Positions 32,022 to 43,960 of a DNA stretch of 53,238 nt are shown here, one piece after another (the stretch's first letter is position 1; the number at the start of each line of letters is the position of its first letter). Source of the DNA: an uncultured Clostridia bacterium. Lineage in GTDB: Bacteria; Bacillota; Clostridia; TANB77; CAG-508. A model generated the notes under the pieces. The model saw only the letters and a program-made list of their open reading frames with translations, was not told the DNA's origin and did no database searches. Location: positions 1 through 53,238 of the forward strand of contig CANQEX010000001.1 of NCBI GenBank assembly GCA_947596225.1, in the 5' to 3' direction. Made by a program: the position numbers and the translations under genes.

Positions 32022-32070
32022 ATATTATTTAATTTTATCTTTAAATTTAGAAGTTTTTAAGTTAAGTATA

Positions 32071-32100
32071 TTGAAAAAAAGACAATAAAAATGATATAAT
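32071..32100 (+). promoter_or_regulatory. Candidate extended -10 sigma-A promoter of giant gene 1
   Basis: TTGAAA (32071-32076), an 18-nt spacer ending TGa, TATAAT (32095-32100). Confidence 0.5.
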
Positions 32101-32143
32101 ATAAATAGAATTTTTATTTTTTGAAGAAAAGGGATAAATAATT

Positions 32144-35100
32144 ATGAATGAAGATGAAGAATTAAATGAAGATACTTCTTCTCAAGACAATGAATCTAGT
32201 TCTAGCAATAGTTTTACACAAAAAGCTGCACAAAAGGGCATGGAAAAAGCTAGAAAACAGGTTACAAAAAAAGCTACTAAAACTGCTGCAAAAGCAGCTA
32301 AAGCAGGTTCTAAAATGGCATCTTTAGGCCCTATTTTAGTATATGTAATTATAGCAATAGTTATAATTATTGTATTTGTAGGTATAATTATGTTTTTAAT
32401 AACTATGCCTGGTATGGTTATGGAAAAAATAAAACAATTAGGCAAAGCCATTGGAGATGTTTTACTAGAGATTTTTGGAGTTGATAAAACTTTAGATGTA
32501 GATGATAATACTATATATACAACTTTAGATTATTTAGAAGAAATGGGGTATGATTTAAAAGGTTTTGGTTTTTTAACTGATTATATAACAACAGAAGAAC
32601 AAGCAAAAAGTGTTAACAAAAATATTAAAAATGAAGATGGATTAAAGATTGATAAAGAAGAAGGTGTAGCTAAAAATAATGATGGTAAAATAATATCAGC
32701 TAAAAGTGATTTTATATATAATTATCTTGTTTCTGATAATTATGTTTACACCTTAAAAAATGAGAATCATGTTTCTGGTGATGGAACAGGAGGATTTTTC
32801 AATGGAGCAGTAGGGTTACTTGAAAGCATAGTAGATTTTGTATTTAATGGTGAATTAAAAGATCATTGGTCAAGAGGTTTTATAGCAATATATAAAGATA
32901 ATGGAATATTGGGAAATCCAGCAGGAACTTTCTTTAATGATTCAGCATTTAAGTTGGGAGATTATGTTGATATTAATCCAGAAGCAAAAACATTAGAAAT
33001 AAAAAAGGGTGTTTTAGGAAATGCTATGACATATAAATTAGAGGGTTGGACTGGTAGATATGGAATGCCTGTAGACTTCTTATTATCAGTTCATTTAGCA
33101 ACAATGATGCCAGATTTAGCATATGATATGGCAACTACTTTTAATACACAGTTATATTTATTATTACATCCAATAGGAGGAGGAAATTCAGCAACTGCTG
33201 TAGGATACTATAAAGGTGTCTCATATGATACCCTAGCTAAAGATACAGGTAGTGGTGTTACAGGGGTACTTAATAGGTGGCGTGTAAGTAGAGAAGAAGG
33301 TTATAATTTATTTAAAAATAATCCAAGCCTAGAAAGTCCAGCTGATTGTATAGGACCAGAAAATGAGAGATATGAAGCACCAGTTGTTGCAGAACCACCA
33401 GCAGATTTTGATGAAAATGTTATTGGTGGTAATACTTATGATATTTCAACAACAGATACTAATTATCAAACTCAAGCTGTAAATAGATTTAATACAATGA
33501 TAGATAATTTTAAAAATTATGGGTGTACAGAAAATAAAATATCAACATTTAGTGAATTTGAGAGTTTATTAACTAAAGAAGAAAATAAAACAACATATGA
33601 AAGAACAGCTGGTTCAACTTATAATGGTGGTGGAGACTATGAAAAAAAAGAAGTGCCTTTAGAAGAAGGAGAAATTATAGCATCTTGTAATCAACCTATA
33701 AGTTGGACAGGAAAAGCACCAGCACCAAATAGTGATGAAAATTGTACATATATGACTACAATTAATATTATTTATGAAAATTATAGTGCAAAAGATGAAG
33801 AAGGTACTGATATTTCAAAAAATTATATTAGAATTACATACAAACCAATAACTAGAAGTGAGACAGAAAGTGAGATAAAAGCAGAAATAGAAAGTAAAAA
33901 AGAAAAATTAAGAGCAGAAGGAAAAACAGAAGAAGAGATTGCAGGTATGTCTGATGATGAAATTTTAGCAAACATATCTTGTAGCACTGCTGCAAGAGGA
34001 GAGGATAGTGGAGACTATACTGGATGTTGTGATGTTTGTAGAGCTTATTTACAAAAAATATATAATATTGTAAGTGCTGTTGATGTAAGTAATTTTCAAA
34101 TGTATCAACCATATATTTCTTCTGTAGAGGATCATTGGTATAGAGATGTTTATTTTGTAGCTGCTGATGCTAATGAAGAATTTATTGATTTAGATTATGA
34201 ATATGAAGCTGTTATGAAAGAAAGATGGACTTTATACGAAACATATACAGATTCAGGAAGTGGTTATAAAAATAATCCTAGTAGAGCTGGTGATTATATA
34301 TTATATGCTGTTGATAAAAATGGTGATTATGCAACTAAAAAAAGAGATATAGAAAATGCTAGTAAAACAAATAAAATAAAACAAGCAGGTAAATATTTTA
34401 TATATGATGGAACACAGGAAGAAGCAAATACTGAAGAAATAAAAGTAGCAAAAAAAGCAATAACAAGCAAAATATCTGATAATAAGGATGAGTTATCTTG
34501 GAATGATGTTGGAAATAATATGTTGTCAGCATATAAATTAGAAAATGTAAGTACTACAACAAAACAACAAGCTTTTGAAGGTATAACTGAAGGGGATGAT
34601 GACTATGATATTAAAAAAGATGTATCTGTAGAAATAACTCTTTCAGAAAACATTGTACAAACAGGAGAAGGACAAAGAACAGAAACTAATCCTGAAATAA
34701 AGAAAATGTTTTTAAACAATACATATTTTAGATATGATGGAAGTCAAGAAACTGCTGAAGCAATAACAAAATTAAGAAATAATAATAACTTGAATTATGG
34801 ACCATTAAATGAAGGTCAAGGAGGAAAAACACTAAATTCTATTTTGAAGTTAAAAACAACAATAGGTGAAGGTGACAATAAAAAAGAATATACTGTATCA
34901 GATGTTTCAGGACAAGTAAATTTAAATCAAGATTCATTAAATGCGTTTAGTATGTTAGAAAACACTCATACACTTGATGCAGATTATATATATAAAGATT
35001 TTAAAGAATTAATAGTAGAATTAGGATATTTTGATAAAGAAGAATTAACAGATGAAACTCCTAAATTATTACAATTTCCAATTCCAGAGATAGGTTCATA

Positions 35101-43291: not shown

Positions 43292-43314
43292 ATATTATTA
43301 GAAAGGTTTATTTT

Positions 43315-43911
43315 ATGGAAAATAGGAATAATATAAAAAATAAAATTGTAATAATATTATTATTAATTGCTCTTATTACAGTAGTAGCAATGATAATTAC
43401 TATAGTATATATAAATTCAACAAATGATACTTTAATTAGTAAAAAAAAGTTAGAGTATATAAATGGTAAAGAATGGAATAATGAATTATTTCCTGATGAA
43501 ATGCCAAAATTTTATAGAAGCTATAATGGAAAATTAACAGCACAAATTATGGGAAAATCTATTTATTATGTAGCAACAGAATTAATTCCAGAATATTATA
43601 CAAAATTAAAAAATTTAGATGATAAGTTACTAAATGAATTTTATAATAATAATTCAGATAAAATTAAAATAGAACTAGGAATTACGACAAATAATGATTT
43701 TAATGAATTTATTAAAGAACTAAATAAATTAAATAATGACAACATTGAATTTGAAAGTTTTATGATAGATAAAGAAACGATTCAAACACGAAATGGAAAA
43801 ACAACAGCTAAATTACATATAAAATATAAAAATTGTGAGGAACTTATTATTGAAATTACTCCACTAACAAATATTAGTACAGATACATCGCCAATTATTT
43901 ATTCAAAATAA
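43315..43911 (+). CDS. Membrane-anchored partner protein 2 (198 aa), paralog of 37805..38488
   Basis: Starts 23 nt after giant gene 2. N-terminal TM (IVIILLLIALITVVAMIITIVYI). Shares motifs with partner 1. Confidence 0.7.
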   Translation: MENRNNIKNKIVIILLLIALITVVAMIITIVYINSTNDTLISKKKLEYINGKEWNNELFPDEMPKFYRSYNGKLTAQIMGKSIYYVATELIPEYYTKLKNLDDKLLNEFYNNNSDKIKIELGITTNNDFNEFIKELNKLNNDNIEFESFMIDKETIQTRNGKTTAKLHIKYKNCEELIIEITPLTNISTDTSPIIYSK

Positions 43912-43921
43912 TTTAATAAAA

Positions 43922-43960
43922 AAAGCAATATTATCCTTTTTAGTATTGCTTTTTTTTTTT
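43922..43960 (+). terminator. Intrinsic terminator of module 2
   Basis: aaagcaatatta..tagtattgctt stem followed by a T10 run. Confidence 0.75.

Follow-up and report, generated by a model that had tools for sequence, protein, structure and literature searches.

Predicted giant wall hydrolases with exchangeable tips and co-varying membrane partners beside ftsEX in uncultured Clostridia

What is the role of two giant genes, each followed by a small gene for a membrane protein, that lie between a transketolase and ftsEX on the chromosome of an uncultured bacterium? The question is raised by contig CANQEX010000001.1 of an uncultured Clostridia bacterium (assembly GCA_947596225.1), of which a stretch of 53,238 nucleotides (nt), here called the window, was analysed. 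Its base composition is about 25% G+C and its genes lie nearly all on the plus strand, as do all parts of the two modules described below. A first-pass annotation of the window had proposed a tandemly duplicated two-gene module in a housekeeping setting, and we found the open reading frames (ORFs), gaps, promoters and terminators as described there. Comparison with related genomes shows that the giants belong to a chromosomal, lineage-wide family of transmembrane-anchored proteins with two wall-cutting enzyme folds, which are carried on two independently exchangeable enzymatic cassettes. We class the giant and its partner as a polymorphic effector and a cognate partner on a new scaffold.

Giant 1 (32144–37783; 1879 amino acids (aa)) is intact and is followed, after a gap of 21 nt, by partner 1 (37805–38488; 227 aa). 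Giant 2 is interrupted. Its N-terminal fragment (38635–38955; 106 aa), which holds the cytoplasmic tail and the transmembrane helix, is stopped by a frameshift, while the frame of the remainder (38945–43291) is open from 38945 and encodes 1416 aa from its first ATG at 39041 (39041–43291). Partner 2 (43315–43911; 198 aa) begins after a 23-nt gap. From the N-terminus onwards, a giant comprises the cytoplasmic tail, the transmembrane helix, a core split by a hypervariable insert, a papain-fold domain, a mid domain and a C-terminal domain that we call the tip. The two giants are 50–52% identical across aa 1–402 and 632–1638, and the two partners show 28% identity (E = 5e-17). The DNA of the two modules forms a mosaic: leader, N-terminus, the final part of the core and the mid domain reach 77–91% identity, but core insert, papain domain, tip and partner are at background level.

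Joint variation of tips and partners

The tip follows a conserved junction, ENVEDYMKLD, at the end of the mid domain. Across the family we distinguish at least seven tip types of 150–270 aa that are unrelated to one another by BLAST. Three types are known to Pfam, namely Hydrolase_2 (SleB-like), Glucosaminidase and Phage_lysozyme2; type 0 has a predicted GH46/lysozyme-like fold, and types 1–3 have no Pfam assignment. Most tips start with a Glu-containing motif soon after the junction. Arrays of modules mix the types: loci L006 and L024 carry types 3, 1, 5, 0 and 4, locus L003 types 3, 2 and 0, and the window types 0 and 6.

The partners constitute one homologous family for which no Pfam or PDB relative was detected. 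They share one N-terminal transmembrane helix and an ectodomain of about 150–190 aa, which is predicted to face the outside. Within this family, partner identity follows the tip type and not the core or papain type. Mean identity is 0.33 for partners of the same tip type vs 0.21 across types, and it remains flat at about 0.20 even where the adjacent mid domains are at least 65% identical; mid-domain and partner identity show a Spearman correlation of -0.05. In a leave-one-out comparison, the nearest-neighbour partner shared the tip type in 29 of 30 cases. The match between partner and tip type also holds where some 5 kb separate the tip from a partner encoded upstream of the giant, which argues against pure hitch-hiking by linkage. 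Papain domains, extracted with the use of hidden Markov model (HMM) anchors, fall into four BLAST types that assort freely with the tip types, and the papain type has no effect on partner identity when tip types differ (0.204 vs 0.206).

Exchange between close relatives is seen in two loci, L004 and L007. Here ftsEX and the downstream genes are 86–99% identical at the nucleotide level and the mid domains 80–92% identical, whereas tip and partner are only 31–52% identical. Judged by this co-variation, the partner is specific for the predicted terminal glycosidase of its giant. Searches for homologues with the partner profile and with the giant 1 tip returned a handful of fragments, the search being limited by its word index.

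Most partners of type-0 tips possess an extra C-terminal extension of about 30–40 aa ending in (S/T/N)G(K/R)(V/I), which the partners of other types do not have. In partner 1 it is encoded at 38380–38485 and ends in NGKVIDN. Speculatively, this extension might be an inhibitory element.

Architecture and integrity of the giants

Part boundaries, given in giant 1 numbering, were set from coverage and conservation among homologues. The cytoplasmic tail (aa 1–58), at first acidic and Ser-rich, then Lys/Ala-rich, leads into a single long hydrophobic segment, the transmembrane helix (32318–32416; aa ~59–91). Each giant has one such segment, at aa ~55–92, and the positive-inside rule predicts a type-II membrane protein with the N-terminus inside and the C-terminus outside; the ectodomain measures 1450–1790 aa. 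The conserved core part A (32426–33223; aa ~95–360) is separated from the likewise conserved core part B (34034–35263; aa ~631–1040), for which there is no fold match, by the hypervariable insert (33224–34033; aa ~361–630), which is almost absent from giant 2. A Lys-rich linker follows after aa 1040. The CHAP/NlpC-P60-like, papain-fold Cys/His peptidase domain (35549–35818; aa 1136–1225) lies inside a swappable cassette of aa ~1041–1262. The conserved mid domain (35930–37054; aa 1263–1637) ends in the junction, behind which the type-0 tip (37055–37780) carries the motif FESGG...GLVQWT. The mid domain of giant 2 (41723–42742) shares 69% identity with its giant 1 counterpart, and the giant 2 tip (42821–43258) is of type 6, that is Phage_lysozyme2 (phi29 gp13-like).

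The conserved globular core of about 650 aa could be modelled confidently. An AlphaFold2 model of the compact giant 2 core (713 aa; alignment of 47 sequences) reached a predicted local distance difference test score (pLDDT) of 81.8 and a predicted template-modelling score (pTM) of 0.75. Compared with the PDB and BFVD by Foldseek, this model gave nothing at E <= 0.001 (best E >= 0.05, query-normalised TM-scores <= 0.1). Searches of the whole giants and partners against Pfam, NCBIfam, PHROGs and PADLOC returned CHAP and Phage_lysozyme2 only, the weak matches of the 106-aa fragment of giant 2 being transmembrane or low-complexity noise. PDB sequence searches, together with profile searches for the whole family, the partner and the mid domain, gave nothing besides phi29 gp13. 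In line with the first-pass annotation, which had recognised no family in the central region, the four collections contain no tape-measure or type IV secretion system (T4SS) match for it, and the conserved blocks quoted there are invariant or near-invariant columns throughout the family. Because many of these invariant residues are polar or aromatic, the sequence of the core suggests a binding or catalytic surface.

Two of the three wall-cutting modules that had been proposed for the giants stand up to closer analysis. The papain domain of giant 1, searched in isolation, matches CHAP with 30.6 bits (Pfam cut-off 26), and Foldseek relates it to Spr/MepS, an NlpC/P60 protein, with a probability of 0.99; the AlphaFold2 model of the C-terminal half of giant 1 has a pLDDT of 79.9. 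The catalytic dyad is kept in most relatives (Cys in 37 and His in 34 of 44), and the papain region of giant 2 has both the Cys and the His motif, with no Pfam match. The proposed lysozyme-like end is likewise borne out, with C-termini that belong to different families in the two giants. The giant 2 tip matches Phage_lysozyme2 (E = 3e-22); in the alignment with phi29 gp13 (PDB 3csr), its Glu falls on residue 45, which we take to be the catalytic Glu. The giant 1 tip has no Pfam match; Foldseek assigns it to GH46 chitosanase, a lysozyme-superfamily fold (probability 1.0, target TM-score 0.54), and its type keeps the motif (F/Y)E(S/G)GG...GxxQW. By family or fold match and by the retained Glu, the tips are predicted lysozyme-superfamily glycosidases. 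The LytM-like module, in contrast, was rejected: four tests on aa 1263–1637, namely Pfam, Foldseek, a PDB profile search and hhalign against a local M23 profile (probability 0.1%), gave no LytM/M23 signal for the mid domain, and the label 'triple-fold' is therefore not supported.

The frame of giant 2 breaks at a heptamer repeat, AATAGGT, which is present in three perfect copies (38940–38960); two copies correspond to the intact frame and three to the frameshift. Deletion of one 7-nt unit (38953–38959) gives back an ORF of 1550 aa, the approximate length that had been anticipated for the repaired copy. An ENA contig from an independent assembly (L031), 99.2% identical to the window over 6.6 kb, has two AATAGGT units and an intact frame, and the repaired giant 2 equals its protein P0121, with complete identity over the first 389 aa. 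Given the two units and the intact frame of L031, the giant 2 copy is a recent frameshift allele or a phase-variant-like allele, and an assembly error is less likely. Slipped-strand switching of giant 2 between on and off could account for the difference of three vs two copies, as could recent decay into a pseudogene. The comparison of repeat and frame used positions 5406–6599 of L031, a contig of 3x coverage whose last 75 nt do not align to the window.

Broken copies are frequent in the family. Eight of about 50 giants are split, five of the breaks falling within aa 105–224, just after the transmembrane helix, and the single giant copy of locus L023 is among the split ones. Partners are retained beside broken giants, and two orphan partner genes were found. 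The breaks that cluster behind the transmembrane helix in other MAGs include those in L003 (7255–11710) and L023 (9824–14546). In locus L022, two adjacent paralogues (8704–13453 and 13482–18552) carry the same +1 frameshift, located at CTAAAAG within the MGYELKG motif. Although their nearby sequences have diverged since then, both retain an ORF longer than 1400 codons. This shared shift may represent a functional split, recoding or gene conversion.

Distribution and genomic setting

Giant 1 has 223 close homologues of about 1100–2040 aa, none of them named, whose Pfam annotations are scattered over CHAP, Peptidase_C39_2, NlpC_P60, Hydrolase_2, Phage_lysozyme2, M23 and Glucosaminidase. An exhaustive phmmer search with the core (E <= 1e-3; clusters at 50% identity) yields a family of 612 representative clusters. 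All 28 genome loci stem from metagenome-assembled genomes (MAGs) of uncultured gut Clostridia from rabbit, chicken, sheep, mouse and human. One of them is Candidatus Scatovivens faecipullorum, which has been placed in the order TANB77, family CAG-508 (PMC13106387). About 20 loci share the order addA-like, orf219, tktN, tktC, one to six giant-partner modules, ftsE, ftsX, pcsB-like, pcsB-like, ctpB-like, orf686, orf334, and every syntenic locus holds at least one giant copy. In a more distant clade (L002) the giants are also found directly upstream of ftsE, while a distant giant sits between polA and metK (L012). Literature searches, which included the paper on the TANB77 pilus, found no description of the giant family.

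The neighbours in the window are all chromosomal. As the first-pass annotation had stated for the 53 kb, we found no mobile-element gene among them; relaxase, VirB4/VirD4, integrase, capsid and tail genes are absent from the 53 kb and from the syntenic loci. The giant core has no relatives in IMG/VR (2.9 M viral contigs), PLSDB (72,556 plasmids) or INPHARED (50,697 phage records). Since mobile genes are lacking and the collections of mobile elements hold no relatives, and with synteny kept in about 20 MAGs, the earlier view that the module is not an element remnant is upheld.

Both modules have their own signals for transcription. A promoter-like site with TTGAAA, an 18-nt spacer and a TG-extended TATAAT lies 44 nt before the ATG of giant 1 (32071–32100), and one with TTGCCA, an 18-nt spacer and again a TG-extended TATAAT lies 44 nt before that of giant 2 (38562–38591). 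These are the top two sigma-70-like sites of the 12-kb region, each with 11 of 12 matches plus the TG extension, and by sequence both are sigma-A-like promoters with an extended -10. Predicted intrinsic terminators, each a hairpin followed by a U-tract, close module 1 (38496–38532; -15.4 kcal/mol, z = -5.4) and module 2 (43918–43956; -17.6 kcal/mol, z = -6.5). An Rfam search of the region gave no family.

The remaining genes of the window encode a Tad-like pilus cluster, SpoIVB, a Mur ligase, PheS/PheT, a GH25 protein, an AddA-like helicase, a split transketolase, FtsE/FtsX, two PcsB-like M23 proteins and a CtpB-like S41 peptidase. Downstream of the modules (44027–49399), ftsE and ftsX overlap by 35 nt and are followed by the two tandem PcsB-like proteins, in which a coiled coil is joined to Peptidase_M23 and not to CHAP, and by the CtpB-like S41/PDZ protease; this ftsEX-pcsB-pcsB-ctpB block is kept downstream of the giants in about 20 MAGs. 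Three ORFs without Pfam match, of 219 aa (29486–30145), 686 aa (49502–51562) and 334 aa (51588–52592), occupy positions flanking the tkt-giant-ftsEX block that are kept across the syntenic MAGs. A separate, nearby wall hydrolase is the GH25 muramidase (23657–25189; 510 aa), which has a long extension at its N-terminus and is encoded upstream of the addA-like gene here and in two syntenic MAGs (L007 and L017). A DUF5050-domain protein is encoded at 17673–18287, and another one in L012 (18897–19616), about 4 kb downstream of the giant.

At the start of the window (1–9412), nine ORFs without Pfam match agree in gene order and size with the published TANB77 Tad-like pilus cluster. They comprise a partial CpaF/TadA-like ATPase, a 692-aa multi-transmembrane TadC/TadB-like fusion, six pilin-like proteins (144–243 aa) and a 797-aa minor-pilin-like protein. 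The published cluster has been described as conserved in no order other than the uncultured TANB77 (PMC11680825, Table 1), and the agreement suggests that the window stems from this order. It had been suggested that the module might serve as a gate for this filament system, but none of the other loci examined has the pilus cluster beside its giants. The giant of L012 is followed, about 8 kb downstream, by a pilin-like gene, with metK, thrS and other genes between them.

In the distant clade (L002 95–9134; L020 2–9892; L028 2123–9985), a conserved set without Pfam families precedes the giants. It consists of a protein of more than 1000 aa, two paralogues of about 800 aa with 5–8 transmembrane segments and two small transmembrane-anchored proteins of about 170 and 325 aa; a G5-plus-Glucosaminidase protein follows the giants. 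The set may belong to a larger envelope machine, for which no ATPase was seen. A T4SS-like machine was considered here and rejected, as the multi-transmembrane protein of about 800 aa gave a T4SS_pilin match below threshold only (21.7 bits) and ATPases were lacking.

Possible functions and relation to known systems

Polymorphism, co-swapped cassettes, mixed-type arsenals, orphan partners and frequent silencing match the signature of polymorphic toxin-immunity systems. We therefore tentatively favour, with a little less than even confidence, a wall hydrolase of polymorphic type whose cognate inhibitor or immunity protein sits in the membrane, the pair serving short-range or contact-dependent antagonism of neighbours. 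Among the three roles that had been put forward earlier, that of an antibacterial enzyme paired with a cognate immunity protein in the membrane fits best in view of the co-variation of partner and C-terminal domain; the pilus gate is not supported, and a role in sporulation is not favoured.

For antagonism of this kind, the giant would be inserted by Sec and stay in the membrane of the producer, where it would present a peptide-stem cutter and a glycan-strand cutter to the peptidoglycan. The partner would bind and inhibit the cognate tip on the outer membrane face, blocking it at the producer's own membrane or in the inner wall zone. The target of the giants would be non-self, and the tip would reach it at short range or on contact. 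Tip and partner would be swapped as one cassette through recombination at two conserved sites, the junction and the beginning of the following gene, and different tip types would accumulate in arrays as a result of this joint swapping. Early frameshifts would silence single copies, in the window through three instead of two copies of the heptamer, and expression from the sigma-A-type promoters would be vegetative. A bolder claim, which we consider conceivable but doubtful, would be that TANB77 bacteria carry a previously unrecognised class of polymorphic toxins independent of secretion systems. A Sec-inserted, membrane-anchored 'lytic arm', based on a fold of about 650 aa that is novel, would bring its exchangeable warheads, peptidase and lysozyme, into contact with neighbouring cells in order to kill rivals or to gain nutrients from lysed prey or hosts; cognate membrane immunity proteins would guard the producer, and frameshifts at short repeats would switch single copies on and off. 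According to a trait-prediction analysis, many growth-related traits are absent from TANB77 genomes (PMC11680825).

Several points weigh against antagonism. No release or delivery route was found, the giants having only their N-terminal transmembrane anchor, and neither the window nor the syntenic loci contain type VII secretion system (T7SS) or other secretion genes. A membrane-anchored inhibitor protects the inner wall zone, and how it could protect the outer wall face is hard to see. The partners are all homologous to each other, while in classical systems toxins of different folds usually have immunity proteins without mutual relationship; this homology may simply reflect that all tips are lysozyme-like. 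Linkage alone could contribute to the co-variation, the partner usually lying between two conserved recombination anchors. In locus L022 (UBA7001), none of the three giants is adjoined by a partner. All genomes are MAGs, so that some of the frameshifts may be assembly errors. Finally, the conserved site by ftsEX-pcsB-ctpB across distant clades, with at least one copy per syntenic locus, fits a housekeeping or division role equally well.

Such a role is the core of the strongest rival explanation, which we regard as possible, if rather unlikely: the giant would be a self-directed autolysin that remodels or splits the producer's own wall in growth or division, and the partner a cognate membrane inhibitor or regulator setting time and place. 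Diversification would then come from adaptation to wall chemistry, or from escape from phages or host factors that target the exposed protein. The site directly upstream of ftsEX, two pcsB-like genes and ctpB, conserved even in the distant clade L002, speaks for it, as do the presence of a copy in every syntenic locus, the sigma-A-like promoters, a permanent transmembrane anchor suited to action in cis, and the single homologous partner family expected for a regulator of a shared mechanism. FtsEX, however, already has two cognate coiled-coil PcsB-like M23 proteins, and the giants match no CC_PcsB model in Pfam. Moreover, wholesale replacement of tip and partner between genomes with flanks about 95% identical and up to five different glycosidase families per array would be unusual for a housekeeping autolysin. 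Copies are often broken, including the frameshifted single copy of L023, and distant members occur in unrelated contexts, e.g. between polA and metK. We judge it improbable that the giant is instead a variable surface protein, an adhesin or antigen diversified by host immunity or phages, with hydrolases that let the ectodomain through the own wall and a partner acting as export or assembly chaperone for the tip. Its three independently variable regions (core insert, papain cassette and tip), the heptamer repeat and early frameshifts reminiscent of a contingency locus, and the gut commensal lineage would be in keeping with this, but the variable parts are catalytic domains with active-site residues kept rather than binding repeats, conservation is highest in the large core and the mid domains, and a chaperone leaves the orphan partners and the partners beside broken giants unexplained.

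It appears very unlikely that the giants serve sporulation, be it in engulfment, in lysis of the mother cell or in remodelling of the cortex, after the manner of the membrane-anchored hydrolases SpoIID and SpoIIP. The window encodes SpoIVB and a CtpB-like protease, some family members have a SleB-type Hydrolase_2 domain, and the pairing of peptidase and glycosidase on one transmembrane anchor would resemble the combined activities of SpoIIP and SpoIID. A role in sporulation is nevertheless not favoured because both promoters look sigma-A-like, matching the consensus with an extended -10, and polymorphism, copy-number variation and frequent inactivation would be unexpected for core sporulation machinery. 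Close to refuted, lastly, is a stranded remnant of a conjugative element or prophage, in which the giant would be a VirB1-like T4SS hydrolase (of the PrgK/TraG/CwlT kind), a tail lysin or a tape-measure protein. The same domain logic of a transmembrane segment followed by glycosidase and cysteine peptidase would suit it, and so would the giant 2 tip, a Phage_lysozyme2 domain with a local match to a tape-measure PHROG, and the T4SS_pilin match below threshold, found in a protein encoded upstream of the distant-clade giants and not in a giant itself. Against this stand the lack of transfer and phage genes in the 53 kb and the syntenic loci, the housekeeping synteny of about 20 genomes, a core without relatives among viral contigs, plasmids and phage records, and the restriction of PHROG matches to the tip domain of giant 2.

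The family is large, with its 612 clusters, and unannotated; it takes up to about 30 kb of a genome and was found only in MAGs of uncultured Clostridia, one among them assigned to TANB77. This order has been linked to cancer immunotherapy response (PMC11680825). If antagonism holds true, the giants would represent a wall-targeted form of it in Gram-positives that is independent of secretion systems; otherwise they may offer a new way to control an autolysin. They would in addition provide a set of matched lysozyme-inhibitor pairs as well as two large conserved domains without known fold relatives, and the tkt-ftsEX site would be a strain-typing and competition locus of these bacteria.

Among known systems, the framework of polymorphic toxins and their immunity proteins (Zhang et al. 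2012, PMC3482391) comes closest to antagonism by the giants. Like WapA/WapI of Bacillus subtilis, CdiA/CdiI and the LXG pair TelC/TipC, the giants have a conserved N-terminal body, a junction motif and a variable C-terminal enzyme, next to a small gene that co-varies with the effector domain; cassettes are replaced between close relatives, and arrays, orphan partner genes and pseudogenes occur. Wall-zone immunity proteins of Gram-positives such as TipC have an N-terminal transmembrane helix and an outside-facing domain, with which the predicted partner topology agrees. The immunity function of the partners and the toxicity of the tips are putative. Unlike polymorphic toxins, the giants have no type V, VI or VII (T5, T6, T7) secretion system, no Rhs/YD shell and no LXG or FHA domain; their body is a transmembrane-anchored core without known fold relative, the assigned tips are all peptidoglycan glycosidases and not nucleases or the like, a second swappable domain of papain fold lies internally, and the partners are all mutually homologous.

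With the VirB1-like T4SS hydrolases (PrgK of pCF10, TraG of pIP501, CwlT of ICEBs1 and TcpG of pCW3) the giants share an N-terminal membrane anchor and the combination of a glycan-cleaving domain with a CHAP/NlpC-P60 peptidase on one chain. They are, however, two to five times larger, reverse the domain order, and contain about 1000 aa of core and mid domains absent from those proteins; they are chromosomal, with no transfer genes nearby and no sequence relatives on plasmids, and their tips are polymorphic and have a cognate partner. The likeness to the phi29 tail lysozyme gp13 is limited to the last ~150 aa of giant 2, which has neither a phage context nor the M23 domain of gp13. FtsEX-controlled hydrolases (PcsB, CwlO and RipC, with EnvC as activator) resemble the giants in that these adjoin ftsEX and have a predicted wall-hydrolase function. 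In contrast to them, no coiled coil (Pfam CC_PcsB) for docking to FtsX was detected in the giants, which have their own promoters and terminators, and the two genuine PcsB-like proteins are encoded separately downstream. The partner, finally, would resemble hydrolase inhibitors such as Ivy, MliC/PliC, PliG and IseA of B. subtilis in its proposed role as an extracytoplasmic, membrane-associated neutraliser of a lysozyme-type enzyme. It differs from them in that no sequence similarity to any Pfam family or PDB chain was detected, and in that its gene is paired with that of the cognate enzyme, with which it co-varies.

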